A stretch of 58,500 bases of DNA, filler included, from Basidiobolus ranarum (GCA_040143965.1; 9 parts of 9 records of this genome joined end to end with filler, not necessarily neighbours in it); one strand, 5' to 3'. Numbered from the whole stretch's first letter, positions 4,616 to 45,649 are shown. Program-made: numbers and translations. The notes: generated from the sequence alone by a model not told the origin.

Positions 4616-4962
4616 TGTTAAAGTATTTGGGAGCCTGTTGGAAGTGGTTTGGAGAATTAGCAAAATTTGTGCTTTTCACTTATTGATTTATTGAGTAAAA
4701 AGTTGACATTTGTTGTTTTGTCAAGATATAAACAGACTAAAAGATATAATGTGCTTAGGAAAGTCCCAGGAACATGTGCACAAAGTTTGGGGCTTCTAGC
4801 ACAAATTTGAAAAATCTATATATCTGAGAACTTCTAAGTTGGTAAAGATACTCTATGAAATTCAAATTGACAATAATGGGTAATATCTTGGTATTATATA
4901 AGATTACCAAGTACTAAGCTATATATATCTATATAGGTGCTCAGGCAATGCAAATTTCAATG
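4616..4962 (-). mobile_element. Solo LTR, copia family A
   Basis: Reverse-complement match to the LTR at 5364-5692; near-perfect 5-bp TSD CTTAT/CTTAC. Confidence 0.8.
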
Positions 4963-5363
4963 CTTACATCATTGAAGTTTGTAATATAAACAAGTATCAA
5001 TTTCTACTTACAAAATCTGTGGATCTAAAGTGAGCCATCATGTATTTAATTTTAATAACTGGGACATTAGAGGGAAAGTTTGTAATTCCTGTGGATTTAA
5101 CATAAATCTTAGGCACACAGTATGATTTTGAACCTAGTCACATTCTGTAAGTACTACTAACTACTTCCTGTAGATCCATTGAATATTACATTTACCAAAG
5201 TAGATGTAACATATGAAATGGCAATGAACCAAGTTTAACTAAGTATGACCATCACATGATTTCTAAATCTTGGTTTTGCCTACACTTTGGAACAAAGGTT
5301 AAGTTCAAGAGCAATATGCTTATTAGCATATCTACAAGAGAAATAGAGAAATGAGCTATTTTC

Positions 5364-5692
5364 TGTTGAAATTAGCATTGCCTAAACACCTATATAGTCA
5401 TATATAGCTTAGTACTTAGTTATCTCATAATTTGCTAACATATTATCCATTATTCTCATGAGGAATTTACTGAGAAGTTCTCAGATATATTAATTTTGAT
5501 AACTTGTGCTAGAAGCCCCAAACTTTGCACACATGCTTCTGGGACCCTTCTGAACACATTCTACATATTAGTTTGTTTACATCTTGACAAAACTATAAAT
5601 GTCAACTTTTTACTCAATAAATCAAATAGTAAAAACCACCAATGCCTCTAATTTTCCAAACCACTTCCAACAGGCTCCTAAATACTTTAACA
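5364..5692 (+). mobile_element. Solo LTR, copia family A
   Basis: TGTTGAAATTAGC...TTTAACA termini with perfect 5-bp TSD TTTTC (5359-5363, 5693-5697). The same LTR follows a PPT and copia RNase H at 10867-11217. Confidence 0.9.
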
Positions 5693-6436: not shown

Positions 6437-6536
6437 NNNNNNNNNNNNNNNNNNNNNNNNNNNNNNNNNNNNNNNNNNNNTTAATTAATTAANNNNNNNN
6501 NNNNNNNNNNNNNNNNNNNNNNNNNNNNNNNNNNNN
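6437..6536. other. Artificial contig spacer (also at 12964, 19481, 25990, 32497, 39001, 45504, 52003)
   Basis: Identical 100-bp N44-TTAATTAATTAA-N44 linker with stops in all six frames. Contig lengths between linkers are 6427, 6417, 6409, 6407, 6404, 6403 and 6399 bp. Confidence 0.97.
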
Positions 6537-7862
6537 CCTTCCATGTTCCACCGACATCTTTGACTACTGCTTGACCACCGAGTTTTCCTTCCGTGCCTAC
6601 TTCTAAAGAGACCCTTGTCACCTCAGTAGCAAATGTCTGCAACTGATCCACCATAGTGTTAATGGTGGTCTTTAATTCATGAATTTCTCCTTTCACATCG
6701 ACTGTAACCTTCTTGGAGAGATCACCTCGAGCAACTGCTTTACTCACATTCGCAATATCTCGGACTTGTGCGGTTAAATTAGAAGCCATTAAGTTTACAT
6801 TATCGGTTAGTAACTTCCAGGTACCATCAACCCCAGGAACCTCAGCTTGGACACCCAGTTTTCCTTCAGTTCCAACTTCATGAGCAACACGAGTCACTTC
6901 AGAGGCGAAAGAGTTCAATTGATCTACCATAGTATTAATCGTATTCTTTAAAACAAATGTTTCTCCTTTCACATCTACCGAAATCTTTTTTGATAGATCT
7001 CCACGAGCAACTGCTGTACAAACTTCCGCGATATCACGAACTTGTTCAGAGTGACTAGAGGCCACTCGATTCAAATTAATCATCATTTCTTTCCAAGAAC
7101 CACCCCATTTATGGGTTTCTCCTTGAATACACAGTTTGCCCATTTCAGCCATTTCACGTCCAACATGTAATACTTCAGAAGAGAGTTCCTCAAGACGATC
7201 AGCCATTCCATTGATTGCGTTCTTTAAAGCCAAAGTAGATCCGGTAGCGCGAGTACAAATAATTCTTTTCGAAAGGTCTCCATTTGTGATGGCGATAGCA
7301 ACATCTGTGCACTCATCCATACAATTCAAACAAGTACTGCCTGAACCGTTAGCTGACGAATGATGCTCATCAACATCGTCTTCATAATCCTCTCCAGAGG
7401 CAGAAGTGCAAGAGGACGAGAGTGACTCAGCCTCGGAATGCTTAGCAGATATTGAAGTTGGCAGATGTGTACCAGCTAAAGATACGGATAAATTAAAGAA
7501 GTTAAGTATGTCTTTATCAAGATTTGAACAAGAAGAAAAAAGTTACTTGGATTCTCTAAGGTGTGACCTTCTCTTTGCTTTTTAAGATACTCGCAATCCC
7601 CATTATCCACATTAGAGCTTAAAGGTAAGTATGGACAAGAGGTGTTGATTTCACTAGGGGGTTTCCTCTCGAATCGGTTTTGATATTTCTCCAATTCCTT
7701 TTCTAAGAAAAGTTGACGACGTAATACCTGTTGTAGTGCTTTTTCAACATATATCTCAGTTTCGGAAGTGCCACGATTCAAAGAATAGGTGTATTTGCTG
7801 GGACTGTCGTGACCCATGGAGGTCAGAACATCGCCTACGTATTTTAAAAAATCTGTCGTCAT
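6537..7862 (-). CDS. Group III-type hybrid histidine kinase (Nik1/Os-1-like), 5' part with tandem HAMP repeats; truncated by contig end
   Basis: Repeated HAMP units ([23 protein letters not shown]...[35 protein letters not shown]). Upstream exon probably starts MTTDFLKYV; start and intron (~7475-7555) are approximate. Confidence 0.88.
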
Positions 7863-10866: not shown

Positions 10867-11584
10867 TGTTAAAGTATTTCAAAACCTGTTAGAAGTGGTT
10901 TGGAGAATTAGAGAAATTGATAGTTTTCACATATTGATTTATTGAGTTAAAAGTTCACATTTATAGTTTTGTCAAGATGTAAGTAAGCTAATGTATAGAA
11001 TGTATTACAAAAGGTCCCAGGAACATGTGTGCATAGTTTGGGACTTCTAGCACAAGTTTGAAAAAATCTATATATATCCAAGAACTTCTAAGTAGGTGTC
11101 AATATTCTAGGTAAGTTCCAAAAGAGAATAATGGATAATATCTTGGTGAAAAATAGGATAGCTACACACTAAGCTATATATGACTATATATGTATTTAGG
11201 CAGTGCTAATTTCAACACTCTCCCTCAACTGAATAGTCATATAAACTAATCCTAAAGAAGGTCTAAATTCCCAAAATATCTATTTAGCTAATGGTTTGGA
11301 CAATATATCAGCAATCATGTCTTCGGTAGAATAATAAGTTAGGTCTATAAACTTATTCTCTGTAGTCTCTTTAATGAAGTGATATCTAATATCTATGTGT
11401 TTGCTTCCATTATGAAACATGGGATCTTTAGCTAATTTAATACAACTTTGATTATCTTGAAATATTTTAGTGTGTGAATTTTGAGAACAACCCAAATCAG
11501 TTCAGAGTTTTCTTAACCATATTGCTTCTTTTGCTGCTTCACTGGCAGCCATTTATTCTGATTCTGTTATTGAAAGCACTATTG
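10867..11584 (-). mobile_element. Ty1/copia 3' end: RNase H + PPT + LTR family A
   Basis: IFQDNQSCIKLAKDPMFHNGSKHIDIRYHF...DMIADILSKPL, followed by PPT TTGAGGGAGAG and TGTTGAAATTAGC. RNase H resumes at ~12670-12786 after a nested insertion. Confidence 0.88.
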
Positions 11585-12656: not shown

Positions 12657-13063
12657 CTCTAAAACACCACAATGGTAGGATGTTTGTTTGAATTCCAAGA
12701 AATAGCTCCATTACAGCAAAGAAACAAGTATCTTGTTGTAGATCTCCCAACTTCAATATCTCTTCCCCAAGTTGCATCTGAATAAACTAACAGAAATATA
12801 AGGATTGTTATTGTAGGAAAACCATCACAATATTAATCCATTTGGGGTTGACCATTTACTTACTGTCATAAAATTGTCAAGTTAGATTTGATTTTAATCA
12901 ATTTTTTTAGTTTCAGGAGTGAAATTTCAAGATTTTGCAAAATAGTTGCACATGATTGGCTACNNNNNNNNNNNNNNNNNNNNNNNNNNNNNNNNNNNNN
13001 NNNNNNNTTAATTAATTAANNNNNNNNNNNNNNNNNNNNNNNNNNNNNNNNNNNNNNNNNNNN

Positions 13064-13870
13064 CCCTATTTAGTTGAGGAAGAGTGTTGAAATTAGCATT
13101 GCTTAATTACCTATATAGTCATATATAAAGTTTACTATTGGGTTTTTTGATATTTAACTAGGATATTACCCATTGTTTTCAATCAGAATTTACTAGCATT
13201 ATTTTTACCTACTTACATATTCTCAGGTATATGGATTTTTCAAAATTGAGTTAGAAGCCTCAAACTTTGCACACATGTTCCTGGGACCTTTTGTAACACA
13301 TTCTAGAAGCCAGCTTATCTATATCTTAACAAAACTATAAATGTCAAATTTCCACACAATAATTCAACAAGTAAAAACCAACAATTTCTCTAGTTCTTGA
13401 AACCACTTCCAACAAGCTCAGAAAACACTTCAACAAGAAGTTCTCCAATATATAGATTCTTTCAAACTTGTCCTAGAAGTCCCAAACTCTGCACAAATAT
13501 TCCCAAAATCTGCCTTAACACTTTCTATATGTTTGTTTACTCCTTGACAAAACTATAACTGTGAGCTTTCCACTCAATCAATCAATGAGTGAATACTGTC
13601 AATTTTTTCAAGTTACACAAACCACTTCCTACAACTCCCAAAATACTTCTACTGGTTGTGAGCCCCAAGCTACACACTCTGTAATGTTTACCTCTAAATT
13701 TCTGGAACTTTTCCTTCCTCCAAAAATTGGATAGAACCAATTACCAAGTTTGGAAAATAAAGATGAAAATACTGCTGCAAGAAAAAGTACTTTAGGAAAC
13801 TGTTGAAGGAGATGAAAACAACGCAGAGCTGTCTGAAACCAAGGGTTTACTCCAAGTTGGGAAAAAACAA
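13064..13870 (+). mobile_element. Copia remnants: PPT + LTR A (13085-13435), partial LTR, PBS-like site (~13654) and gag start
   Basis: TTGAGGAAGAG-TGTTGAAATTAGC; GGTTGTGAGCCC PBS-like motif; LDRTNYQVWKIKMKILLQEK gag-like peptide. Confidence 0.75.
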
Positions 13871-14248: not shown

Positions 14249-15940
14249 TTAATCGACTGACTGGTAGCTATGCAGTGCTGCAATCTCATCGATTGAACGG
14301 CCTTTAGTTTCAGGAACCATCAGATAAATAAAGATGAGAGCTATTCCGTTGGTGACGGCAAAAATAATAAACGACTTAGCCCCAAAGGTACTGATTAACG
14401 TAGGATATATGAATACGACAATAGAATAGCATCTAAGAAACCAGCTTCATGTTAGACATTGTACGTGGGTGTTAAAAGCACATTTTATACTTACGCCCAG
14501 TTTGTAGAGGTCGCTATAGACACCACTATCCCGGCTGCCCAAGTAGGAACCAGCTCAGCAATAATCATGAATGGGATAGTGGCTGATCCAATACTAAAGC
14601 TAGATGTATACAGAAAGACTGTATGATAATTGAGGTTAGAACTCGTGAGGGAAGTACGGAAAGCAGTAAAACTCACCGGAAACTGTATTTAAGACCACCA
14701 AATCTGCCATATCACCAATAATAAGCAATAGACAAGACACAAACATTCCGCCTGTGCTGATTAATAATAACGGACGGCGTCCGCTTTTATCAATTAACAT
14801 GGATGAACACAAGTTAAGAATAACGTTGAGTGCTGCAATGCATATGGTCATATAGGGAGCAAGTTCTGGCCCTATTGTTTGACGAAACATCAATGTCGAG
14901 TATAGCGTCACCCCATTTACTCCAGATAACTGCTGAGCAATATGAAGTCCCATACCGATAAACAACATCTTTCGAACATATTCATCGCTCATTATATCAC
15001 TCATCCGCTCTCTTAGAGTTCCACTTTTGGATGCATTCAATGAATGCTCTGAGCCGTCGCCTTGAACACCAGAAACCATGTCATCGAATTCATTCTCGAT
15101 GTAACACCCTTTACGAAGTTTTTGCAGTGATTTCCGAGCTTCAATAACTCGATTTTTAGAGAGCAGGTACCGGGGTGTCTCAGGGCAAAAGGCAAGAAGG
15201 AACATCTGGATTCCAGCGAATACAATGGTGAGCCCAAATAACACTCTCCACAATGGAACCGTAGCCAGCCCAAGGCCTGTTATTTGCGAGATTAAAATAC
15301 CCAAAGCGATGGAGACTTGAAGCAAGGTCCCCATAGCACCACGATATCTAATCGTCGAACTTTCAGCGATATAAATTGGACCCACAACAGTAGAAGTTCC
15401 ACTACCGAGGCCGATGAGGAATCGACCAGTCGCAAACATGGTGGTATTTACTGACAGCCCAATCATGAGTCCTCCAACGACGAAATTTATATTATTGAGC
15501 AAAAGGGTTCTCTTTCTACCCAACTGATCTGCTACAGGACCGGCCGCGAGTCCACCTATCAAACCTCCTATTTGCATAATAGCAACATTAAAACCCCTTC
15601 AATTATTTTGAGAAAAATATTTCAATACCAATGATAGTTGTATGCATATTATTCGTTGAGGGCCATACCAAAGTAAATCTCCCATGGGCAGACAATCTGG
15701 AAAAATTCCTGACAAATGTTGTTCTTCGCAGCCTCGAACCACTTTTTCCGAAATATTGGGGGAACCAGTGTTCCAACCTTTGTTAAAAGAAGCCATAGTG
15801 GCTACTAAAACTGATAGAAAGACTACCATTGTCATTCCCTTTTCTCTAGAATCGATGATTCTTTCATTGGTGGTTGACGATTTGGAAGCATCTTTACGAA
15901 CCACGGGTGTCCATTCATTATCCGTTGACTCCAAGGACAT
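14249..15940 (-). CDS. MFS sugar porter (GLUT/hexose transporter-like), ~4 exons
   Basis: DQLGRK, GRFLIGLG, PIYIAE..RYRG, PETPRYL, QQLSGVN, IDKSGRRPLL and VPETKGRS motifs; GT-AG introns; TAA at 14249-14251. Confidence 0.92.
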
Positions 15941-18900: not shown

Positions 18901-19860
18901 TGTTGGTGATAGCATCCAACCTGTCTATGAGGCATGTATAGTTTCAGTCGCGGGAGTCATCCCTGCATGGAACCATTCTCGATAAAATTCAATTTGGTAG
19001 CTCATGGAAAGGCTCCTATTTGCTGACAGTGTTTTCAGATGCATAATTGCTGCAAGAGGATTCCATGGATGCTTCCATAATTTGCAATCCATATGACTGC
19101 AGACCGAGCCATATGAAACCAATCTCACTAAGAACAATCAGTCACACTGGGCTGTGCTAGAATCTAAAATTAAGCCCATCTCCATTGGTCCTTGTTGTTT
19201 GCTTAACTAAACCATTTTCAATTTAAGTGCAATTTATGCGTTGGGAGGCTTCCTTTTCAATTCAATCCCAATTGTAGCCCTGTCTAAAGACGTGATCGAT
19301 ATCGGCAAGGGGGATCAGAATATCACCCTGGCATTTCAGGGTGGCTTATAAGTGATTGATCCAGAGCTTACTAAATGCCGGATCGCTAGCTATACTGATC
19401 CTATTATGTTATGCGAAGTAAGCTTAATATGCAGAGCAGCTTAAACCTTTGTTTCAGTTATCCTGTTACTAGTGTACCCGNNNNNNNNNNNNNNNNNNNN
19501 NNNNNNNNNNNNNNNNNNNNNNNNTTAATTAATTAANNNNNNNNNNNNNNNNNNNNNNNNNNNNNNNNNNNNNNNNNNNNAGCCCCTCTTTTACTTTCTA
19601 TCTAGAAAAGTTTTGCTTTGGATATTCTAACAGTGTCTGTTGTCATTGACCGAGACAGAGAATAGGCAGTACGATATGTATGCGCTCACATTAGTAACCA
19701 ACTATTATACATTGCATTGAGAGTACCGAAATGAACACAGTGAACAGAAATTAGGTGATGTGTCATAAATCTTCAACCTGCGCCATTGCACGAGCTAAGG
19801 TGAGTGGTTGGCATAAACATTTACAAGTTGATGTATACCTTTGTCCCCATCAAAAAGTAT

Positions 19861-19932
19861 GGTTTCGTGGTGTAACGGTTAGCACCCAGGACTTTGAATC
19901 CTGTAATCCGAGTTCGATTCTCGGCGAGACCT
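19861..19932 (+). tRNA. tRNA-Gln (TTG)
   Basis: Acceptor GGTTTCG/CGAGACC, anticodon arm CAGGA-CTTTGAA-TCCTG, T arm CCGAG-TTCGATT-CTCGG, downstream TTTT. Confidence 0.95.
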
Positions 19933-20005
19933 CTTTTATCTACCTCACGAAGAGCTCTTTTGAGTCTGTCTCCGCAAGTACCAGCAAATTGTATATTCAT
20001 TCTCC

Positions 20006-20031
20006 TACTACTACTACTATTACTACTACTA
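20006..20031 (+). repeat. (ACT)n microsatellite
   Basis: tactactactactattactactacta. Confidence 0.8.
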
Positions 20032-20091
20032 GTGAACTCAATAGTCAAGTAGTTTGAACTTGTTTTCAAAGAGAGCCTAATTTTCAATTGA

Positions 20092-20173
20092 GACGACATG
20101 GCCGAGTGGTTAAGGCGTATGACTAGAAATCATATGGGCTCTGCCCGCGCAGGTTCAAATCCTGCTGTCGTCG
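20092..20173 (+). tRNA. tRNA-Ser (AGA)
   Basis: Acceptor GACGACA/TGTCGTC, anticodon arm TATGA-CTAGAAA-TCATA, long variable arm GGGC-TCT-GCCC, T arm GCAGG-TTCAAAT-CCTGC. Confidence 0.95.
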
Positions 20174-20178
20174 AATTT

Positions 20179-20252
20179 GCTCGCATAGCTCAGTTGGTTA
20201 GAGCGTGGTGCTAATAACGCCAAGGCCGCAGGTTCGACCCCTGCTGTGAGCA
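20179..20252 (+). tRNA. tRNA-Ile (AAT)
   Basis: Acceptor GCTCGCA/TGTGAGC, anticodon arm TGGTG-CTAATAA-CGCCA, T arm GCAGG-TTCGACC-CCTGC, followed by TTCTTTTT terminator. Confidence 0.95.
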
Positions 20253-20577
20253 TTCTTTTTCTGTTTTCGTTTGGTTCTGCATTCGCTTTTCTTTGGTTAA
20301 CTTGATATTGATGTCAGGGCAAGGATAACTATTGGGATATTCCATGCGCGCAGCCTTTTTTGCCTAGCTATCTCATCCATCTAGTCACCATTATGCCGTT
20401 TGATAACATACTCAATGCTGACTGCTATTGCAAATAAATTATGTTTTAAGATATCTATACACAAGCATAATATGTGAACCTTCGTCGAGCTTGATCAAGC
20501 ATTCAATATGAATGGATTATGTGTGCGCAATGATTTAGGAATGTGAGATACTAACCAAGATTGAACAACATATGCAA

Positions 20578-20591
20578 TCTCGGATAGTATA
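20578..20591 (+). repeat. Left target-site duplication (= tRNA-Asp nt 1-14)
   Basis: TCTCGGATAGTATA is identical to 25830-25843. The exact TSD/tail boundary is ambiguous within the TA run. Confidence 0.93.
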
Positions 20592-20797
20592 TATATATGG
20601 GTCTTTTTATTCATTTAGGGTGTTGTGTGTAGTAACAAATGGAAAAGGGAATAGGGTTTGAGTGAGGCCTGTATTTCCGTATGTTGCCTCCGACTTGTAG
20701 TAACCTTAAAGTTATACACGCAGCCGTGGGGCAATATGTTGTTTCTGACACTGGTGAGCTATGGTGTAATAAGGATGTAGAGTGGTAGTTATCTTAT

Positions 20798-23700
20798 CTA
20801 TTTCTTTCGTGGTTGGATGCCAATAGTGTTGTGGATTTTCTGACGTTGTTTAGGTGATAAGGGGTATTTCACTAGTTGTGCAATGCGTTCTAGGCATTGA
20901 AACATCTTCTGAATGAGGTTGTCTGTGGGTGAAATTTCAGGGCCTCTACTTGCTATGTCAATGATGGGGCATGGTATGTGGCCGGGTGTGGGTAAAATGG
21001 TGTTTGTGTGGGAGCACTCCAGAATGTGGGAGCGAGTGATCTTTGTGTCGCATTTAATACAGTTATTGTTGCCGTTGATCATGGTGCCGGCTATCCAATG
21101 TAGAAGGATTAGTTTGCTGCATTCGGGGATGTGCGCGTTGAGCCAACGGCGCATTGTAGAGGTCATGTGATAGCCGCTGATAGCTTCTGGTATTATAAAC
21201 TTAGCTCGTTTATAGCCATATGTTTTGGAATGTTGTAAGGTGTGGAGGTCTTTTAATGCCCATTTGGTCCAGTATTCAGGATGAATTGAGGTCGTGGGGT
21301 CCGGCCGTTGGAGTAGTTGACACTTAAGTACTTCCTTGGTGATGTCACGCCATATAGGATTGCTTTCTAATTGCCTGATGAGGGACCGGCTGGGTTCAAT
21401 GCGCTTGATCTTTCGATGGATCCAATGGCCCAGGTGTGATTTGTTGGTATGCAAGTATCGGCTTAAAAAGCAGCATTTCTGCCATGCCAGTAGTAAGTTG
21501 GTGGAGGGGAGATCCAGAATCCATTGCCAGAGTCTAGTCGGGGTGGAGCTTCCGCCACCTACCATATTACGAATGCAGTTGAGAATTATTTTGTCTAACT
21601 GTTTCTCTATATTAACGTTGGTGCTGGTTAGCCATGTGCCGTATTCAAGTGAACTGTATATAAATACTCGTAGGAGATGGATGTTAGTACGTATCATGAA
21701 ACCGTGTCTTTTCATTCCAATTTGACGAAGGGTTCGGGCTGTATTTTTTGCCTTCTGTATGCGGTCGTTGGCCTGAATCTGGCTGTTGATGCCTTTTGTG
21801 TCGATTTGGACACCGAGATATTTGGCGTTTGTGGCAGTGGGTATTTCCTCGCCATAGATATACAAGTTAGATCTGGGTTGTTGACTTATTACGATGCATT
21901 TAGCTGGTTTCCATCGGTATCCGTTTGCATTTGAGTGTTCTTCGCATTTCTGTAAAGCGAGTTGCGCTTTTTCTGGTGTAGTGATGGTGATGACGTCGTC
22001 CACATAAAGGAGTGCGTTTACATGTAACGTGGTTGATAGGTCTACACCACCTAATGCAGCGCGGATATGATTAGGTAGGTCATCTAAGAATATGTTGAAG
22101 AGTAATGGACTAAGCAGAGATCCCTGAAGGATTCCGGTAATGGGGGTTATGAGGTTGGTAAGCGCGCCGTTAACAATGACTCTGAAGGAACAGTTGTCAT
22201 ATAAGCTACTGATGGCTTTGAGGGGTTTGCGTTGGAAACCTTTGTTTGCGCATTTTTCCCATAGTATAGGGCGGTTGACCGAGTCAAATGCCGCGGATAT
22301 GTCTAATAGTGCCATCGTGGGTGTAACCTTTTTGTGTTCCATGATATTGATTAGTTCTTGGAGATTTACTATTTGGTCAATGGTGCCTCGTCGTGCTCGG
22401 AATCCTCCTTGACAGATGTCAAGCTGATTCAGCTGCTGTTCGTTGATCCATGTTAGAATGATGCGTTCAAAAAGTTTGCGCATGACGTTAAATAAGGAAA
22501 TGGGACGGTGATTGGTAATGCTTGTTCGGAGTCCTTTTCCTTTGTACAGCGGAAAGAGGTGAACTTCTCTCCAGTTGGATGGTGTGTATCCTGTGTTAAT
22601 GACTAGGTTGGTAAGCTTGGCAAAGCACTCATTAAATTGTGTTGTGAGGGTTTCGTCCCACTGGAGAAATTTGATAACTTCAATTGATATTCCGTCAGGA
22701 CCTGGTGCTTTCTGGTTGGGAAGTGTTCTCCATGCGTTTTCCACGTCTTCTGTGCTGACTTTGATTTGCTGTGTGTCCTTCATATCTTCCCAGAAATGTG
22801 AGGATGGCTCGGATGGTAGGTTTGTATTGTTGTTGAACATATTTTGATAATACTGTTCGACTTCTTTGTCAATTTGTAGATTAGGGTCATCTGCAGTTAG
22901 TATGGTGGCTTGTGACCGGGGTTTGATGAGGTTTTTAATGGTTTTGCTCATTTGGGATAAGTCGCTGATGCCTAGTCGTATACTGAAGTTTTGAAATCGT
23001 TTCCGGCGTTCCTTGTCTAGTTGTTTGCGGAATGCGTGTTGGGCTATGATATATTGAGACCAAATGGCGTCTGCGTGTGGTTTACCTTGGTTACGTGTCC
23101 ATGATCGGTGCAGTTTGCGGCGTGTCTTCATTAATTGTTCCAGTGTGGATGACCAAAACCATTTCCAGTTGGTTTTGCGTGGTGTAGTTTTACCTGTGGA
23201 GGATATGGTTTGTGTGAGAAACCAGATTAGTTTGTTAGATATGTTTTCAATATGTTGTTCAGGGGTTGTCATGTCGGGTGCATTGATTTGCATGATATCG
23301 GGGTACACTTGATGCATTGCTAATTTGGCTTGAGTCAGGCATTGATGTTTGATATCGTGTGCCATAGATCCATTTGTCTCGGTTGGGTATGATCGAGATG
23401 TTCGATTTTTTACTTTGCCTTTTTGTGGGAGTGGCAGAGCCCAGATTTTCCAACGGGGTTGTACGTATGTGGGTACTTGGGTTGGTGTGTTATTGTTGGT
23501 GATGGTGAATGTGACAGGTGAGTGTTCTGTGCTTCCGATAGAGTATGGTGCTAGGATTTCGTTATGTATTATGCGGTGGGCGGCATAGGTGTTAAAGAGT
23601 ACATGATCGATGGTACTCTGTCCTCGGTTATTGTGGAAGGTGGGTCGTTCTACTGCTGGAGGCTTGCGACTAATATTGAATTGGTCCATTAATCGGATGA

Positions 23701-24184
23701 GGGTGTGTCCCAGGACGTTGGTGCGAGTGTCTTGTGCTAATGGACCTATTCGAGCATTGAAGTCACCACACCAGATGCACGGTTTCGTGGTGTTGTTTGT
23801 AGGGAATAGTTGTTCAAGATGGGATGTGGGTGAGTTGGGCGGGATATAACTGAAGCACATGGTGATTCCTTCTAGTTCGAACCAGACTGAATCGGTCAAG
23901 TCGTCTTCTTTAATTAGTTTGAATTTGTTGATTTTGGTTGGTGTGGCCTGTAAAATGATGAGACCGCCTTTTGGTCGTCCGCCCCCTGTGGTATTAGGTT
24001 TGGTGGCTGCTTTGAAGTATAGTGTGCGGTCCTGGAAGTAGCTCTTTGGTAAATGTGTTAACCATGTTTCGTTACACAGTAGAAATTGGGTATTATTGTG
24101 GTCTAGGTATCGATTAATCTCGGGTATTTTGTTACGTATTCCTCCTACGTTAAGGAATGTGATGCTAGTGGTGATGTGTTTCAT
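20798..24184 (-). CDS. LINE ORF2: AP endonuclease + reverse transcriptase + C-terminal CCHC zinc knuckle
   Basis: EN motifs FLNVGG, NETWL, GDFNA, PTF, TIDH, TEH. RT motifs KAPGPDGI, HRPISL, QGGFR, LDISAAFDSV, GILQGSLLSPLLF, LYVDD, KYLGV. Knuckle CIKC-x7-H-x3-C. An in-frame upstream ATG at 24211 is also possible. Confidence 0.95.
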   Translation of the reverse strand: MKHITTSITFLNVGGIRNKIPEINRYLDHNNTQFLLCNETWLTHLPKSYFQDRTLYFKAATKPNTTGGGRPKGGLIILQATPTKINKFKLIKEDDLTDSVWFELEGITMCFSYIPPNSPTSHLEQLFPTNNTTKPCIWCGDFNARIGPLAQDTRTNVLGHTLIRLMDQFNISRKPPAVERPTFHNNRGQSTIDHVLFNTYAAHRIIHNEILAPYSIGSTEHSPVTFTITNNNTPTQVPTYVQPRWKIWALPLPQKGKVKNRTSRSYPTETNGSMAHDIKHQCLTQAKLAMHQVYPDIMQINAPDMTTPEQHIENISNKLIWFLTQTISSTGKTTPRKTNWKWFWSSTLEQLMKTRRKLHRSWTRNQGKPHADAIWSQYIIAQHAFRKQLDKERRKRFQNFSIRLGISDLSQMSKTIKNLIKPRSQATILTADDPNLQIDKEVEQYYQNMFNNNTNLPSEPSSHFWEDMKDTQQIKVSTEDVENAWRTLPNQKAPGPDGISIEVIKFLQWDETLTTQFNECFAKLTNLVINTGYTPSNWREVHLFPLYKGKGLRTSITNHRPISLFNVMRKLFERIILTWINEQQLNQLDICQGGFRARRGTIDQIVNLQELINIMEHKKVTPTMALLDISAAFDSVNRPILWEKCANKGFQRKPLKAISSLYDNCSFRVIVNGALTNLITPITGILQGSLLSPLLFNIFLDDLPNHIRAALGGVDLSTTLHVNALLYVDDVITITTPEKAQLALQKCEEHSNANGYRWKPAKCIVISQQPRSNLYIYGEEIPTATNAKYLGVQIDTKGINSQIQANDRIQKAKNTARTLRQIGMKRHGFMIRTNIHLLRVFIYSSLEYGTWLTSTNVNIEKQLDKIILNCIRNMVGGGSSTPTRLWQWILDLPSTNLLLAWQKCCFLSRYLHTNKSHLGHWIHRKIKRIEPSRSLIRQLESNPIWRDITKEVLKCQLLQRPDPTTSIHPEYWTKWALKDLHTLQHSKTYGYKRAKFIIPEAISGYHMTSTMRRWLNAHIPECSKLILLHWIAGTMINGNNNCIKCDTKITRSHILECSHTNTILPTPGHIPCPIIDIASRGPEISPTDNLIQKMFQCLERIAQLVKYPLSPKQRQKIHNTIGIQPRKK

Positions 24185-25740
24185 GGTTTTTTCTGGTTGG
24201 CGAGGATGCATGCTTCAAAATCGGGGGTTTCTAGTTGGAGTTGTTGGCTGTAGTGCCAGTACCATAGTGAAGAGTGATTGTAGCCGTAAATTTGTCGGTG
24301 AATCCGGGTTTTGGTGAGGTCCCTTGCTGTCGTTAATTTCGCGTCGTCCGAGAGGTGTTGGAAGCGTGCTCCCAGGCCCTTTTTGGAGAGTGGGTCAGAG
24401 GGGATTTGGGGATATAATTTGCCTGCCTGTAGTTTAGCCAAGACTTCAATGAGATCGTCATTGTTAATCAGTATCTCTAGGATGCTCTGCCCAATGAAGT
24501 GAAAGTTGATGAGTTGTGTATGTTCAATTCCCAGCTTCCAGAATATCTGTCTGATTTCTCTGTAGGGTAATTTTTGACAGCGAATATGTTTGATAGTATA
24601 GTTGTGTGGGTTGAAGTCGGTGAGATCATATTCCGGTTTACGGAGTGCCTTAGTGATGTTTGCTTTGTCTTGATTTTGATTTTGTTGGCGGATGTGGGGT
24701 TGAACTGCTCGGGGGGGCATTATTGATGCAAGGTTGACGCTGGTCGGAATTGGTGTAGTGGTGTCAAGTTCTTCTAACTCATTCCTTTTAGCGTCCAGAA
24801 TGATGGTGCCGTCCACTACTGGGTAATTGTTTTCATGGGGGTTGTTATATCGGTGTAGTTGTGCCAGGAATGATTCGTTGTCCACCTGTTCCGATTTGAT
24901 TGATGGGATGGGATCTTGTTGATCCTTCTCCGTCGTTTCTACGCCGTTGGTCATTGTGTTGTCCATGGCGTTCTGTTCGTCGTTTTTTTCTGGCAAGTTT
25001 TGATTGAATGTATCCTTCGTTTTATGCGCATAGTTGATGGGGGTATCATTGTCTCCGATAAGATTGTCGTTGAAGGTGTGTTTGCCTTGTACTATGTTGC
25101 TGTATGTAATTCGATTCTGCGATTTTGTCATTGGTTGTTGATCGAACCCTTCGATGCCTTTCTTCTTTTTGATGAGGTGGGTGTTTTTGTTATTTTTCAT
25201 TTGTAGTATCCATTTCATAGCTGTTTTTAGTTTGTTCAATTCTTTCTGCATTTTTTCAACCCTTTTCGTTAAGTGTTTATATTGGGTCCGCATTACCTTG
25301 CTGGGTGTACGGGGTCGTTGGTAGGTGGTAATGTATTCCATTTGTTCTTCGTCTCCTACGTTTTCCCATTCGGCTTCCTGTTGGGTTTCGACACACTCCT
25401 CTCTCGTGTCCGGTTTTACTGGTCGGTTTGTTTTTGGTGTTTTTGATTGATTTCGGTTTTTCCATTCCTGTATGATAGGTTTAATGGTGTTTTCGTTGTA
25501 TGATCGGCCGCATATAGTTTTGCGTTTGGTGGTGGGGTCCTGTAAGAGTACATGGTGACATCGGAAACGTAATGTGCGTTGTCTCGTGTTCAACTTGCTC
25601 TTGGGGTCGGTTCCATCGGGTTGAATGTTACCCGTGGTGTTACATTTAATGCATCGCATTTCCTTTCTGGACTGTTCGATTTGCTGTCGTGTTTCTTGCT
25701 GCACGTTAGTTAGTTCGTATCGAGTATCCAGGGGTGCCAT
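24181..25740 (-). CDS. LINE ORF1 (519 aa): N-terminal Cys cluster, coiled coil, C-terminal putative RNA-binding domain
   Basis: Uninterrupted ORF directly upstream of ORF2 and inside the TSDs; CIKC...FRCHH...ICGRSY; heptad stretch YKHLTKRVEKMQKELNKLKTAM. Confidence 0.88.
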   Translation of the reverse strand: MAPLDTRYELTNVQQETRQQIEQSRKEMRCIKCNTTGNIQPDGTDPKSKLNTRQRTLRFRCHHVLLQDPTTKRKTICGRSYNENTIKPIIQEWKNRNQSKTPKTNRPVKPDTREECVETQQEAEWENVGDEEQMEYITTYQRPRTPSKVMRTQYKHLTKRVEKMQKELNKLKTAMKWILQMKNNKNTHLIKKKKGIEGFDQQPMTKSQNRITYSNIVQGKHTFNDNLIGDNDTPINYAHKTKDTFNQNLPEKNDEQNAMDNTMTNGVETTEKDQQDPIPSIKSEQVDNESFLAQLHRYNNPHENNYPVVDGTIILDAKRNELEELDTTTPIPTSVNLASIMPPRAVQPHIRQQNQNQDKANITKALRKPEYDLTDFNPHNYTIKHIRCQKLPYREIRQIFWKLGIEHTQLINFHFIGQSILEILINNDDLIEVLAKLQAGKLYPQIPSDPLSKKGLGARFQHLSDDAKLTTARDLTKTRIHRQIYGYNHSSLWYWHYSQQLQLETPDFEACILANQKKP

Positions 25741-25829
25741 GTCTTGAAAATTTTCTTCGTCGTTGGGGTATCGGTCTCCTATATAAGAAGTTGTCGTTCG
25801 GCTAGGCGCGGAGAGTGAACAGTGTTCCC

Positions 25830-25901
25830 TCTCGGATAGTATAGTGGTGAGTATCCCCGCCTGTCACGCGGGAGACCTGGGTTCAATTCCCAGTCCGAGA
25901 G
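25830..25901 (+). tRNA. tRNA-Asp (GTC)
   Basis: Acceptor TCTCGGA/TCCGAGA + G discriminator, anticodon arm CCCGC-CTGTCAC-GCGGG, T arm CTGGG-TTCAATT-CCCAG, downstream TTTTT. Confidence 0.96.
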
Positions 25902-26089
25902 CTTATTTTTGGCTGTCTAGTTAGATTGAGGAGTGTTATGTTTTTACAATCTTAGTGGTTGACACGTTGACCTTTTATAAGAACTGCTGNNNNNNNNNNN
26001 NNNNNNNNNNNNNNNNNNNNNNNNNNNNNNNNNTTAATTAATTAANNNNNNNNNNNNNNNNNNNNNNNNNNNNNNNNNNNNNNNNNNNN

Positions 26090-29023
26090 GCTCTCTGTCC
26101 AACCAAGAGAACTGTCTATCACTGTCCCCAAGATACATTCCAACACTGATCCTGGTTACTTCAATACACCATCAGATTTGCATTCTTCTACTTCTCCCAA
26201 ATCTCCGGATGTCCCTCATGCGATATGTCAGAATGTAGATGGCAAGTCTCCTCGTGAGTTGGTTGCCGCAATTAATCAGTGCGTATCTAACTTGTTCTCT
26301 CCAATACCTCTTCATGATTGGGTTTACGCTTTGAGTGATTTGGAGCTCCAAACTATTGATCCTTTGGCGTGGTATCCTAAAAAGAAGGCTTCACCTGTAG
26401 TGGATGATGAAATCATTTTTTCAGACATCTATATTGCTATTGAGCATTGCCGTCACTCTGTAGCTTCTAGCAGTAATACTCAAGCCAGCAACACGTTATT
26501 CTCAACAATCCCTAGTTCAATTGTTGGTCTCTTCCGTGTACATGAAGCTATCAAAGTGTGGGTCATTTCTGAAATAGCCGCATTAACTATTGATTATAAG
26601 CTACGAATCTCACGTATAGAAAAATTCATTGAAATGATTCTACTTTGCCGCCATGAGATGTCTGCACTAGGACCTGGTCGTATTAAAACCTTTAGTCAAT
26701 TGGGCGTATCTGGAGATCTCGGTGGAAAACAAAAGTTATACGTTCCCTCGTTTGTAGAATCTGCCATAATCGCTGGATTGATTAGTCCCGAGAGCAGAGC
26801 ATTTACAAAAGCTTGGAATGATGTATCCCAGAATCATAATTGTGGACTCGACACATTGCACGCCTTGATTAATGGGTTCGATAGCGTTACTTCAGGTTCA
26901 CCATTCTCGCCGCAATTTCAGGATAGCTCAGCTACTGAACCACTTGGTCTTGTTCCGTCACTTGGCTGGATGATTGAAAGTATTTTGGAGATTTTCTACT
27001 ACCTCCCAGACCTTTTGTTTACTTCAGGCCATCTGATTAACTTTGACAAGAGACTCCATGTATATTATTTAATCAGTTCTTTCCGGGAGTGGGCTTCCAA
27101 AGGTCAAAGTGGTTCTTCTCAACCTTTGGATGATGATATCGATATGAGTTTTCTTATCTCTCAAAGTGGGTATGCTACTAAACCGGATATTCGTCAAGTT
27201 AGAGAATTCGCAGCCCGTGAAAATTCTATGATGCGTTACAATTCGAGTGGTGGGACTAGCGGTAGTAGCTGGTCTTCGTCTCACCAATCAGCCCCTGTTA
27301 GGAAGGTATTTGCAAAGTTAATTCACGAAGAGCAGGAGAAATTTAAACGGGATTCGAGAGAGCGTGAGCGCCTAGAACGTGAAGCCAGAGAAAATCAACT
27401 GAATATGCAGAGAAGGATGAATGAGGAAGCCAAAATAATTGAAAAAAGAGTAAAGGAACAACAACAACGCCGAGCTAAAACTAAAGAACTAGAGATGATG
27501 ACAAATCTAATGAAAACTGTTCGAACCACTGATTCCGTGTGTGAGAGTTCTGCCAAAACTCCTATTGCTGATGCTATTATTCCTCACTTTAACGCCGTAC
27601 CTGATTCAATGGGTTCCCGTAATCGAGATTCAGAAGCACCACGTACTTCTTCATTGCCCTCCTTTTTATCGAAAGCACCTACTGTTAAACCCTCTTTAGC
27701 TATCAATCTTATCAACTCAATAATTTCTGTTGAGCACTCTCATGCGAAGCGAGATCATGTCTTCAAGGTAGAATCTGAAGAAGGTTGTCAATATTTCTTG
27801 CAAGCCATTGATCGCCAAGATATGATGGACTGGGTTCAATCCATCAATGATGCAGCCAAAGAAGCTGCCGCCCGAAGAATCACTGTTCTTGTCGAAGATG
27901 CCCAGAAAGAAATCATCGAGCAAGAAAGAGCCTCTAATAGGCCACCATCTATTGGTTCGAGTCCTGGAAGTTCGGGCGCAGGAGCCGACTCGTCCGGTAA
28001 ATATTTACATTTTTGCAAGAGGTTTTTATCAATATTACTAACTTTGTCGCATAGTATTTGGTGTTGATTTAGAACAGATGATGAAAAACGCCGATGGTTT
28101 GAGTGGGTACACCATACCTATACTAGTAGAAAAATGTTTAAGTGAGGTCGAGAGTAGAGGTAATTTTGTTTGAATCCTCTATTTTCGTGAATTTGATATT
28201 CACCTGTGCTGTATAGGTCTTTGTGAAGTAGGAATTTATCGTCTTTCTGGAATGATGTCTAGCATTGAGCGACTACGTCAGGAGTTTAATAGAAGTATGA
28301 CCTATGTTGTGACAACATTCTTAGGTTCACAGTAAATTAAGTTCACTTTACTTTTTCATGTAGATGCTGAAACAGTTGATTTGTCTAACGATGAATGGAG
28401 TGATATCAATATTGTTTCCGGATTACTAAAACAATGGCTTCGTGAGCTACCAGAACCACTACTCTCTTTCGATTTATACGACGATTTCATCTCAGCAGTA
28501 GGTCAGTATAAGTTCAGCAAGATGATTGCGAGAGTATTTATTAAGCCTGGTTTGTTTCAACAAAAGATATCGGAGACTATGATGAAAGACTTTTCGCCAT
28601 CAAGGACATGGTGCATGCTCTCCCTATGCCTAACTATGTGCTTCTTAAGCGATTAGTCGAACATTTGGAAATGTAACGAATAATCATAGGCTTTTGTATT
28701 ATTGCACTGATGTTGACGACCCTTTGCTTTCATCTAGGATTACTGATTATGAAGATATCAATCACATGTACGCTTCAAATTTGGCAATTGTATTTGGTCC
28801 CACTATTCTTCGTCCTCCACCAGGTCCTGCATCTTTTGCCACTTCGATGGCAAATTTAGGTCAACAGCAGAGTATTGTTAAGAACCTTATATTGCAATAC
28901 CATTGGATATTTGATGTTGAAGCCGATGTAGAGCAGGAGAGCGAAAAAGCCGCATATATGGAAACATTGACTGAGGAAGCTGAAGAATATGAATATGAGG
29001 AACATGAAGCTACGGCCCGCTAG
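26090..29023 (+). CDS. RasGEF-like + PH + RhoGAP protein (Bem2-like), 5' truncated by contig edge
   Basis: RasGEF-like WVISEI...RISRIEKFI and LINFDKR; PH C-terminus (KRDHVFKV...YFLQA...MMDWVQSIN); spliced RhoGAP (IPILVEKCL.EVE.RGL.EVGIYRLSG, SGLLKQWLRELPEPL, NHMYASNLAIVFGPT). Confidence 0.88.
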
Positions 29024-30514: not shown

Positions 30515-32596
30515 ATCAGCTTAATTGTTCACAAAACTATTAAAGCTCTTGGTATCTCGAAGTTAGGAATGGAGAAGTAGATATTTCAAAGTTCAGTTCC
30601 AAGGACGAATTGACTCTTTTTGTTAAAAATTCGAATGACAATGTATGAAGAGGCAGTAGTATTTGTTGATTCTAGGAGAATTATATGGTTCAAAACGAAG
30701 AGCTACTGCAGGCTCGAAAGTTCGGAAACCGAAAAACTGCATCAATGAAAAAGATCCGTACATTAAAGTTACTCGAAAACTTTTGATAGCTTCATGGCGT
30801 ATCTCTTCTAACAACACGAAAATACTTACTAGATTGATGGATGCAACAACGACATAATCGTGCATGCAAAATGTTATGATCGAAAGCCAATCGAATTTAC
30901 CGTCATCCGATGTACATAACACAGCGTTTGTTCTGCAATCACTCAACTGAAGCCCGCAGAATTTGCACTTCCCGATACAAAGCATGTTGTAGCTGAAGCC
31001 AACTGATATAGATTGCAAGCAATGCTGATACTATGATATTATATCATAATAGCAGATCAATGAGCTCAGAGTTTTAATAGATGGCCACCATAAATAATGC
31101 ACTATAAAACATCATCATTAATAGGACATACTGAGCATTCTCTTGGCGATCTGTACCGTTGAATTTGTTATGACAGAAATCCATAACAGCTGAGGTTGTG
31201 TAGTTGCAGCAGTAGCAAATACAAATCTGAAAAGTGGATGAATAGTAAATATAATACCGCGAATAGTAGTCGGTGGCATTTCTTAGCAAGGCCGCAATGT
31301 TATGAAAACATTTATTTTTCTGTAAGTAAAAATCTGGTATATTTGTTTAATAAAGACTTTTAGCTAGATATAGCTAAAGAAATCTGTCATATATTAGAAA
31401 AATACTAATCTCTGTTCTAATTTTTAGGATGAGATGCTCTTCTGCTTGCAGTAATCTTCTATCGGGCATCGGCTTTGGATCTGTATATTGAGTAGGTCTT
31501 GATCGTGAATTGATGGGTGTATTCAATTTATGGCATTTGTCATTTTGAGTACAATATACACCTATACCTATGGAAATATTTTATTGATGCTCCCGATAGC
31601 ACATAGCCGGCGGTTCGAGAAGCTCTTTTCGAGAAAAGCATATTTTATATCAAACTATAATATATGATCTGCTGCTTGGTACGTGTAGTGGCTTTGGCAG
31701 TATAAGTTCTCCTGAGAAACTGCAGTGCTCACTGAGTTATATTCCCTGAAGAAGGAACGATACCATTGAAATGGTTTTGCCTACTTACTCTATCTTGCAC
31801 CTCTCCGCAGAAGAAATAGAATCAAATATTTATCTAGTAATATCCCGAAGATCTGTTCAAAGGACAGCCGATTAGGATTTTCATATGTAGCAAATAACTC
31901 TTCATATTTAGTTGATATCGCCTGATCCTATGTTGAGTTTCATATCCATAGCTACCATCCCGAGGACTGCAACTGGCGATTACAAATATATAATCTTGGC
32001 AGATCTCTGCTTCTTAAACTTTTGCCCTTGTTACAAAGTTTCATATTCACCTCTCCTACTCCCTGGACAGTAAACTTGGATAATACTCATTGATCTTGAT
32101 CCCCATTGTGAGCATAACACAGATAACTTGGCATCTATCACTTGATTGAGTCATCAAATACCAACAAATGTTGATTGAACAACTAGGTATGCTGGTCAGG
32201 GCACTCAGCAACACATTTACTACAGTCAAGAAATGCACATTGTATTGGCATCAACTAAAAAGATCCCACAAGCTCCTTTTCACATCATGTCACAAGTACA
32301 TAATGAAAGATTTATTCATCAAATATGGATGGACAGTCACTGAATCGTTCAGTACAGGCGCGCTGTAGCAACTTAGTAAAAAGGACCCACTAGCCCTTGT
32401 GCATATGTTGATTCAATTTTAGAAATTCGCTCAGCTGAAAGGTGCTGATCCAAATTAGAATACTCATAACACAGTGGCTGACTCTGAGTGTTGACTNNNN
32501 NNNNNNNNNNNNNNNNNNNNNNNNNNNNNNNNNNNNNNNNTTAATTAATTAANNNNNNNNNNNNNNNNNNNNNNNNNNNNNNNNNNNNNNNNNNNN

Positions 32597-37903: not shown

Positions 37904-39000
37904 TGTTGAAGTATTTGGGAGCCTGTTGGAAGTGGTTTCAAGAATTAGAGGAATTGGTGGTTTTCACTTATTGATTTATTTAGTATTCAGTTGACATTTA
38001 TAGTTTTGTCAAGATGTAAGCAAACTAATGTGTAGAATGTGTTAAAGAAGGTCCCAGGAACATGTGTGCAAAGTTTGGGGCTTCTAGCACAAGTTTGAAA
38101 AAATCTATATATCTGAGAACTTCTATGTTGGTAAAAATGTTCTAAGTAAATTCCAATTGAGAATATTTGATAATATCTTAGTGAATTATAAGATAACTAA
38201 GTACTAAGCTATATATGACTATATAGATGTTTAGGCAATGTTAATTTCAACAATATAAACTAATCCTAAGGTAGGTCTAAATTTCTCAAATTTCTGTCTA
38301 GCTAATGGTTTGGTTAATATATCAGCAATCATGTCTTTTGTAGAACAATAAGTTAAGTCAATAAACTTAATCTCTATAGTCTCTCTAATGAAGTGATGTC
38401 TAATATCAATATGTTTGCTTCTATTATGAAACATGGGACTTTTAGTTAATTTGATACAACTTTCATTATCTTGAAATATTGTAGTTGGTAAATTTTGAGA
38501 ATAACCTAAATCTATTAAGAGTTTTCTCAACCATATTACTTCTTTTGTTGCTTCACAGGCAGCCATGTATTTTGCTTCTGTTGTTGAAAGTGCTACAATA
38601 GGTTGTTTCTTTGAATTCCAAGAAATAATTCCATTACAGCAAAGAAATAAGTATCCTGTTGCAGATCTCCTGTCTTCTATATTGCTTTCCCAATTTGCAT
38701 CTGAATATCCCATCAGATCAGAGTTTGATCCAGAATAGATGCCTTTTAAGCACAGATCTGTTGAAATTAGCATTGCCTAAGCACCTATATATAGTCATAT
38801 ATAGCTTAGTACTTGGTTATCTTATATTTCACTAAGATATTATCAATTACTCTCAATTGGAATTTACTTAGAATATTTTTACCAACTTAGAACTTCTCAG
38901 ATATATAGATTTTTTCAAACTTGTGCTAGAAGCCCCAAACTTAGCATATATGTTCCTGGGACCTTTCTTAGCACATTCTATATGTTAGTTTGTTTACATC
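37904..39000. mobile_element. LTR A (minus, 37904-38252) + copia RNase H fragment (minus) + LTR A (plus, 38759 to contig end)
   Basis: GYSDANW...RRSATGY...SWNSKKQPIVALSTTEA...DNES...KHIDIRHHF...ADILTKPL lies between two family A LTRs of opposite orientation. Confidence 0.88.
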
Positions 39001-39100
39001 NNNNNNNNNNNNNNNNNNNNNNNNNNNNNNNNNNNNNNNNNNNNTTAATTAATTAANNNNNNNNNNNNNNNNNNNNNNNNNNNNNNNNNNNNNNNNNNNN

Positions 39101-45503: not shown

Positions 45504-45649
45504 NNNNNNNNNNNNNNNNNNNNNNNNNNNNNNNNNNNNNNNNNNNNTTAATTAATTAANNNNNNNNNNNNNNNNNNNNNNNNNNNNNNNNNNNNNNNNN
45601 NNNTGATTTTGCTATTTTGGAAGACGGATCCCATCCAGATTGATTTGAT

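Follow-up and report, generated by a model that had tools for sequence, protein, structure and literature searches.

An L1-group LINE at the first nucleotide of a tRNA-Asp gene in Basidiobolus ranarum hints at a tRNA-homing retrotransposon family

Introduction

When a retrotransposon adjoins the first nucleotide of a tRNA gene and leaves that gene whole, has the site been selected by the element, or was it hit by chance? This question is raised by a long interspersed nuclear element (LINE) of the fungus Basidiobolus ranarum, which lies in a 58,500-nucleotide stretch of its DNA (GCA_040143965.1; hereafter the window, meaning the whole of the stretch analyzed). The element is antisense and head-to-head to a tRNA-Asp(GTC) gene, and its 5' end abuts tRNA +1. 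In the present study, the ends, the coding sequence and the relatives of this LINE were analyzed computationally, and its placement was compared with that of tRNA-associated elements known from other organisms. One copy cannot prove a tRNA-homing family; the placement hints at it.

A complete LINE between two copies of the start of tRNA-Asp

Several observations indicate an insertion into the tRNA gene. First, TCTCGGATAGTATA is present as an exact 14-bp direct repeat, one copy on each side of the LINE. Of the 16 repeat families found in the contig of the element (6,409 b), no other is an exact direct repeat of at least 14 nt (Table 1). This target-site duplication (TSD) cannot be extended, the adjoining bases being A versus C on the left side and T versus G on the right side. 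By rough arithmetic, an exact 14-mer bracketing both ends of the open reading frames (ORFs) within a few hundred bases would be expected by chance with a probability of about 3e-4. Second, the right copy opens a tRNA-Asp gene that was recovered by both ARAGORN and Rfam and that scores 63 bits in Rfam, compared with 63.5-65.8 bits for the three neighboring tRNAs. The gene is entire, with its internal promoter region and a terminator; its whole upstream flank is now the 5' untranslated region (UTR) of the LINE. Third, the element between the two copies carries two uninterrupted ORFs that share 31 nt, ORF2 being read in the -1 frame. [quoted passage not shown] The ORFs are on the minus strand and the tRNA is on the plus strand. 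The rebuilding of a complete tRNA gene, which had also been claimed, was likewise supported.

The 3' end of the LINE carries no poly(A). Instead, a short (TA)n tail, ending in CCCATATATA on the sense strand, runs into the TATA of the duplication. Because the tail overlaps this TATA, 4 of the 14 TSD bases could be assigned either to the target or to the tail. The LINE is thus best explained as a recently inserted and apparently autonomous L1-group element of B. ranarum.

The source assembly is fragmented, and the pieces of the window are its contigs of about 6.4 kb, a state that might favor a wrong joining of the LINE to tRNA sequences. Such an assembly artefact is nevertheless extremely improbable here. 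A mis-join would not place an exact 14-bp repeat precisely at both ends of a complete element with two ORFs, and even junctions drawn from two identical copies would still abut nt 14 and nt 1 of tRNA-Asp. A LINE/tRNA chimera generated by template switching was also considered and was excluded, because the tRNA lies beyond the duplication and runs antisense to the LINE.

Classification of the element and its relatives

The protein encoded by ORF2 matches RVT_1 in Pfam (6.9e-29, aa 566-803) and Exo_endo_phos_2 (PF14529, 1.7e-10), whereas its match to PF03372 (8.3e-5) is below the cut-off of that family. No RNase H family was matched in ORF2 at E<=0.01 in Pfam, and about 100 aa separate the RT region from the C-terminal CCHC motif, the four residues of which are invariant in all 13 aligned sequences (ORF2 and its 12 nearest proteins). 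The RT motifs, including YVDD, and most of the catalytic residues of the endonuclease (EN) are kept when ORF2 is compared with these 12 relatives. Among solved structures, the best relative of the group profile is human L1 ORF2p, which is matched over EN and RT at 6e-68; the EN part of the profile scores 54-71 bits with L1 EN chains, 42 with TRAS1 EN and 26 with R1Bm EN, and the EN domain searched alone gave no match to a solved structure. On these relative scores against solved structures, the element is classed as an APE-type, L1-group LINE. Of the features expected of this group, an N-terminal APE is present, as are a YxDD-type RT and a C-terminal Cys/His motif without RNase H. A TSD of variable length and a poly(A) tail are also expected; the element has a TSD of 14 bp and a (TA)n tail.

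ORF1 is less informative. No Pfam family was matched, and the fold predicted from the single sequence is poor (mean pLDDT, a per-residue confidence score, of 40.2), except for a long helix predicted at aa 148-194. No ORF1 homologue was found at 80 metagenomic loci of relatives (best E 1.2). The neighbors of ORF1 in the Atlas belong to clusters without a name that are commonest in Zoopagomycota and Mucoromycota; the score is 0.92, recognition falls below the usual threshold, and this result is a lead only. The corresponding Atlas search with ORF2 recovered RT families only. Within ORF2, an ATG-started frame of 127 aa runs antisense (21342-21725, plus strand) and is probably spurious.

Relatives of ORF2 are remote. 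A word-index protein search with ORF2 returned 10 matches, the best at 23-31% identity, and the same kind of search with the 13-sequence alignment returned 13 matches, none closer. In an exhaustive HMMER search of 1.84 billion representatives, 66,498 matches were obtained, of which the best 150 are 24-38% identical to ORF2. Neither of the exact ORF1 and ORF2 sequences (0 of 2) occurs in a collection of 15 billion proteins. When metagenomes were scanned with ORF2, 43 pattern matches and no confirmed relative were found, and the scan of viral and prokaryotic contig collections with ORF2 also returned none. The metagenome scan with the family alignment returned 379 relatives, of which the best 80 (20-39% identity) were kept. 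Named sources were found for 3 of the 20 representatives looked up, namely Artemia franciscana, Parasitella parasitica and Cordylochernes scorpioides, that is, one mucoralean fungus and two arthropods. In the literature, L1 LINEs have been reported in entomophthoralean genomes (bioRxiv 10.1101/2023.09.13.557621). Judged by these sequence comparisons, the B. ranarum element represents a new, very divergent, L1-like family.

Proposed course of integration

We infer that the LINE entered the tRNA-Asp(GTC) gene by target-primed reverse transcription. Because the sense strand of the LINE is the minus strand, first-strand cDNA must have been primed by the 3' end of the plus strand at 20591. The endonuclease would first have introduced a nick into the tRNA-sense strand at the junction of nt 14 and nt 15 (5'-TATA^GTGG, corresponding to 25843/25844 at the right copy), a position that we take to be within the box A region. 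The (UA)n 3' end of the element RNA would then have paired with the TATA at the nick, and the freed 3'-OH would have primed cDNA synthesis. The cut in the second strand would have been made at a distance of 14 nt, precisely on the -1/+1 border. Finally, fill-in would have doubled nt 1-14. This would leave, beside the 5' end of the element, an undivided tRNA gene that keeps its terminator and internal promoter and, at the 3' end of the element, a 14-nt orphan of tRNA-Asp.

Two details of the target bear on this scheme. The (TA)n tail is complementary to the TATA at the nick, and the match between element and target there is just 4 nt long. In addition, TATA at nt 11-14 is found in tRNA-Asp and in none of the three other tRNA genes of the contig.

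Selection of the site or chance

Herein, we propose that the placement is a family trait, in which the proteins of the element directly recognize the region of box A in tRNA-Asp DNA and are helped by pairing between tail and target; the element would then be an APE-type, sequence-specific safe-harbor LINE. A probability of roughly 0.4 is given to this proposal. If guidance by the RNA polymerase III (Pol III) complex, which is taken up below with the known elements, is added to it, integration directed to tRNA genes by one means or the other is probable.

The placement might also be a coincidence. A common L1-like LINE, whose nicking would show no more than a preference for TA-rich sites, could have landed in tRNA-Asp and survived there because the duplication kept the gene whole. 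If TATA were all that the element needed, about 14 such sites would be present per kb (738 in 52,558 b), whereas tRNA genes make up a tiny fraction of any fungal genome. The estimated probability of a random insertion into a tRNA gene is 2e-5 to 5e-4 per insertion, a range based on assumed values for both the genome size (tens of Mb) and the number of tRNA genes (some hundreds). A chance placement in a tRNA gene is therefore improbable a priori, and when this low probability is set against a prior of a few tRNA-directed families per thousand LINE families, targeting becomes likelier than chance. The head-to-head layout, which resembles that of known tRNA-directed LINEs, also argues against coincidence, as do the internal matches to tRNA-Asp described below. 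The case for coincidence is that the insertion is known from a single copy, that microhomology between TATA and (TA)n would be enough for priming, and that many windows were scanned, so that rare coincidences are picked up; moreover, the distant relatives are not seen to be linked with RNA genes, tRNA genes included. On balance, we consider coincidence unlikely.

Several findings weigh against our proposal of site selection. First, TATA together with the (TA)n tail could alone fix the position of the nick without any recognition of the tRNA gene. Second, a single copy is known: with the element masked, blastn and tblastn gave 0 matches to the LINE in the rest of the window, and no protein more than 38% identical to ORF2 is present among the best 150 of the 66,498 matches. 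The contig spans the entire element into unique flank, which suggests very few near-identical copies in the genome. Third, the relatives show no comparable placement. None of the contigs of the best 80 of the 379 relatives carries a tRNA gene (0/80), and no Rfam gene was found at the 20 relative loci scanned (0/20). These contigs are mostly barely longer than the element, with few flanks, and belong to remote kin; the counts are thus weak evidence, slightly against a lineage-wide tie to RNA genes. Fourth, the EN motif SDH, found in all 12 relatives, reads TEH in ORF2 (23519-23527, region of aa 229-231). Fifth, the contigs of the window are repeat-rich, and the pressure for a safe harbor may be weak in such a genome. 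Sixth, the internal matches to tRNA-Asp were noticed post hoc, and their best local alignment score is 26, compared with 25 for the best of 104 control chunks.

These internal matches lie on the antisense strand of the LINE (Table 1), one of them spanning the position of the nick; no match to tRNA-Asp of at least 11 nt was found on the other strand of the element. Three matches of at least 11 nt were equaled by none of 20,000 dinucleotide shuffles of tRNA-Asp (mean 0.06), and when 2,000 Markov versions were made of the element, the observed count of 10-mer positions was never reached. As background, matches of at least 11 nt numbered 3 in 351 kb of other LINE loci on the same relative strand and 1 in the remaining 52 kb of the window. 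Counted against their significance are the in-register identity of the stretches to the whole tRNA-Asp, which is 24-32 of 72, and the location of all three within coding sequence. A tRNA-like gene inside the element was rejected, as Rfam returned none at E<=10, and an antisense pair of A and B boxes at 24522 and 24592 was rejected because the order of the boxes is wrong.

If real, the internal matches would point to a long association of the element with tRNA-Asp. They may be relics, may have a role in pairing with the target, or may be coincidental. One form of the pairing role is that the three antisense stretches of the LINE RNA base-pair with the transcribed tRNA-Asp gene on its non-template strand and in part guide targeting, in the manner of group II intron retrohoming; we regard this as highly unlikely. 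It is more likely that the stretches are relics of antisense tRNA-Asp, acquired from 5' read-in transcripts while the lineage resided for long in tRNA-Asp genes.

Comparison with known tRNA-associated elements

In its geometry, the B. ranarum LINE is probably most like TRE5 and NLTR-A of dictyostelids, and in its precision most like the Tx1 and NeSL-type elements. The TRE5 elements of Dictyostelium are listed in the L1 group, have two ORFs and encode an APE-RT-zinc finger ORF2; contacts between ORF1 and TFIIIB bring them to sites located 44-54 bp upstream of tRNA genes, where their orientation is opposite (PMC5911963). In D. purpureum, 16 copies of NLTR-A lie 2-6 bp upstream of tRNA +1 (PMC5006619). 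These elements suggest the other means of directed integration, in which the ORF1 or ORF2 protein of the B. ranarum LINE would bind TFIIIB or TFIIIC, as in TRE5 and Ty3, the nick would be set by the distance from the complex near the start site, and tRNA-Asp would merely be the gene that was hit.

The likeness to D. discoideum TRE5-A, by description, covers two ORFs, an ORF1 without a known family, an ORF2 with APE, RT and zinc finger, a -1 frame for ORF2 and an L1-group listing; each element also adjoins a tRNA gene on its 5' side and is transcribed in the direction opposite to it (PMC5911963). The 2-6 bp distance of NLTR-A (PMC5006619) is also near the -1/+1 cut suggested here, and the insertion lies within a cluster of four tRNA genes. 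However, the first nick would fall in the gene body, and not at about -48 as for TRE5 or upstream as for NLTR-A. The internal matches, counted on the same strand, favor tRNA-Asp (3) over tRNA-Gln (1) and tRNA-Ser and tRNA-Ile (0). No insertion occupies the three other tRNA genes within 720 bp; at n=1, this carries no information. Tethering to the Pol III complex is a plausible though somewhat unlikely explanation, and our proposal of direct recognition of box A remains the one preferred.

The differences from each of these elements are equally clear. TRE5 is described as inserting 44-54 bp upstream and never in coding sequence, as targeted through TFIIIB/TFIIIC and as ending in oligo(A) (PMC5911963); the B. 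ranarum LINE, in contrast, lies at distance 0, has its TSD within tRNA nt 1-14 and a (TA)n tail, and resides in a fungus. NLTR-A shares with it an end almost at tRNA +1 and overlapping ORF1 and ORF2 (PMC5006619; PMC5911963), but is reported to carry an RNase H in place of the zinc finger (PMC5006619), whereas the B. ranarum LINE has no RNase H match, lies at distance 0 and has its TSD in the tRNA. The NeSL lineage includes LINEs that are specific for one kind of tRNA gene, as our proposal would require of the B. ranarum element, with NeSL-1_TV in tRNA-Pro, LIN15_SM in tRNA-Arg and LIN25_SM in tRNA-Glu (PMC4640811). Unlike these elements, which have a restriction-like endonuclease, typically C-terminal to the RT in a single ORF, and parabasalid or planarian hosts, the B. 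ranarum LINE has an N-terminal APE and two ORFs and is L1-like. In sum, the element lacks a defining trait of each of its nearest analogues, namely the TRE5 distance, the NLTR-A RNase H and the NeSL restriction-like endonuclease.

Sequence-specific APE-type LINEs exist in the Tx1 and R1 clades (PMC4640811). Of the Tx1 clade, Dewa, Keno and Mutsu are, like the B. ranarum LINE, APE-type and of the L1 group, and they home to the loci of small multicopy RNA genes, the target of Dewa being a tRNA-Leu spacer in zebrafish (PMC3706591). By these descriptions, the Tx1 elements differ in having animal hosts, and Dewa in residing in a spacer and not in the tRNA. Two further groups are mechanistically remote. 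The DNA transposons Dada-tD and Dada-tV have a fixed insertion point within tRNA genes, tRNA-Asp-GTC among them (PMC8869645), but they are described as having a DDE transposase, terminal inverted repeats, TSDs of 6-7 bp and a site in the anticodon arm, whereas the B. ranarum element bears an RT and has a 14-bp TSD. Yeast Ty3 also integrates a few bases from the Pol III start of tRNA genes, and the gene still works (PMC5911963), but it is a long terminal repeat (LTR) element with an integrase and is directed by TFIIIB.

In the literature searched, no fungal or APE-type LINE was found to be described within a tRNA gene; Repbase reports were outside this search, and the family may therefore be catalogued there. 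The original prediction had pointed to no fungal APE-type LINE that cuts inside a tRNA gene, and this part of the claim agrees with the literature searched, whereas tRNA-gene-specific LINEs as such are already published (PMC4640811, PMC5006619). Thus, if the placement is a family trait, LINEs directed to tRNA genes would be nothing new, and the novelty would be the combination of an APE-type, fungal, box A-cutting and gene-rebuilding element. If the same junction recurs in further copies, the element would be the earliest demonstrated case, both for APE/L1-type LINEs and for fungal LINEs, of a cut within a tRNA gene that also restores the gene. The tRNA safe harbor would then have been invented once more independently; the examples so far are LTR elements of yeast, LINEs of dictyostelids, NeSL-type LINEs and Dada transposons. 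The element would also provide a compact endonuclease with a defined box A target for the study of how APE domains gain sequence specificity, and would test whether Pol III still transcribes a tRNA gene whose upstream flank has been replaced entirely. If the placement is a chance hit, the element is merely a new, very divergent L1-like family in Zoopagomycota.

Contig, tRNA cluster and other features of the window

The window consists of nine unrelated contigs of about 6.4 kb, chained in order of falling size and joined by linkers of the form N44-TTAATTAATTAA-N44; the 16 runs of N in the window are the eight pairs around this linker. Because the contigs are separate, repeats or synteny across the linker blocks say nothing on chromosomal neighborhood. 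All four tRNA genes of the window, as found by ARAGORN and Rfam, are on the contig of the LINE, in the order tRNA-Gln, tRNA-Ser, tRNA-Ile, LINE and tRNA-Asp. Judging from the present layout, tRNA-Asp would have lain about 325 bp behind tRNA-Ile before the insertion, in a same-strand cluster.

Table 1. Positions of the LINE, its target gene, the surrounding tRNA genes and the linkers in the window
Feature	Position	Strand	Detail
Left TSD copy, orphan of tRNA-Asp nt 1-14	20578-20591	+	Follows the original upstream flank
LINE, full-length, L1 group	20592-25829	-	5,238 b
3' terminal (TA)n tail	20592-20598	-	…CCCATATATA on the sense strand
3' UTR	20592-20797	-	206 nt
AATAAA on the sense strand	20606-20611	-	14 nt ahead of the 3' end
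ORF2	20798-24211	-	1,137 aa; APE endonuclease, RT and C-terminal CCHC
Zinc knuckle C-X2-C-X7-H-X3-C	21014-21061	-	aa 1051-1066
RT domain	21803-22516	-	aa 566-803; YVDD present
APE-type EN domain	23504-24166	-	About aa 16-236; N21, E48, D150/N152, D202 and H230 present
ORF1	24181-25740	-	519 aa
5' UTR	25741-25829	-	89 nt; adjoins tRNA-Asp +1
Right TSD copy, tRNA-Asp nt 1-14	25830-25843	+	
Complete tRNA-Asp(GTC) gene	25830-25901	+	Rfam 63 bits; ARAGORN gives 25830-25902
TTTTT run, likely Pol III terminator of tRNA-Asp	25906-25910	+	4 nt past the gene
Match to tRNA-Asp nt 48-58	21390-21400	+ (LINE antisense)	11/11
13-mer shared with the tRNA-Gln 5' end	23781-23793	+ (LINE antisense)	
Match to tRNA-Asp nt 52-64 (T arm)	24522-24534	+ (LINE antisense)	13/13
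Match to tRNA-Asp nt 6-20	24592-24606	+ (LINE antisense)	14/15; across the nick position
Contig with LINE and tRNA-Asp	19581-25989		6,409 b; sole true neighborhood of the insertion, from the flanking N44-linker-N44 blocks
tRNA-Gln(TTG), first of the tRNA cluster	19861-19932	+	ARAGORN; Rfam 63.5 bits
tRNA-Ser(AGA)	20092-20173	+	ARAGORN; Rfam 65 bits
tRNA-Ile(AAT)	20179-20252	+	5 nt past tRNA-Ser; ARAGORN; Rfam 65.8 bits
Linker blocks	6437-6536, 12964-13063, 19481-19580, 25990-26089, 32497-32596, 39001-39100, 45504-45603, 52003-52102		

Within the cluster, the spacer between tRNA-Ser(AGA) and tRNA-Ile(AAT) (20092-20252) is the 5 nt AATTT, without a run of at least four T, and the two genes look like a dimeric, co-transcribed tRNA gene pair.

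Other mobile sequences were observed on further contigs. A family of inverted repeats of about 200 nt, resembling miniature inverted-repeat transposable elements, is found at 4616-5692, 10867-11075, 13236-13424 and 37904-39000; its arms are 91% identical at 38013-38230/38783-39000 and 84% identical at 4616-4839/5469-5692. An open frame at 39767-40630, which has an integrase core domain and a retroviral SH3-like domain (rve 2.2e-8, SH3_retrovirus 1.7e-28), is a fragment of an LTR retrotransposon.

The other contigs also carry ordinary host genes. A fragment of a HAMP-repeat protein lies at 6481-7542 (HAMP 6.9e-24), such repeats being typical of fungal group III histidine kinases, and a frame at 26091-28067 has weak matches to RasGEF and PH domains; both are ordinary host genes. 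A fragment of a sugar-porter gene is present at 14636-15598 (Sugar_tr 1.6e-70). Its 99%-identical NCBI counterpart, together with several B. ranarum paralogues, is named 'Bifunctional purine biosynthesis protein PurH', which looks like an error in the source annotation.

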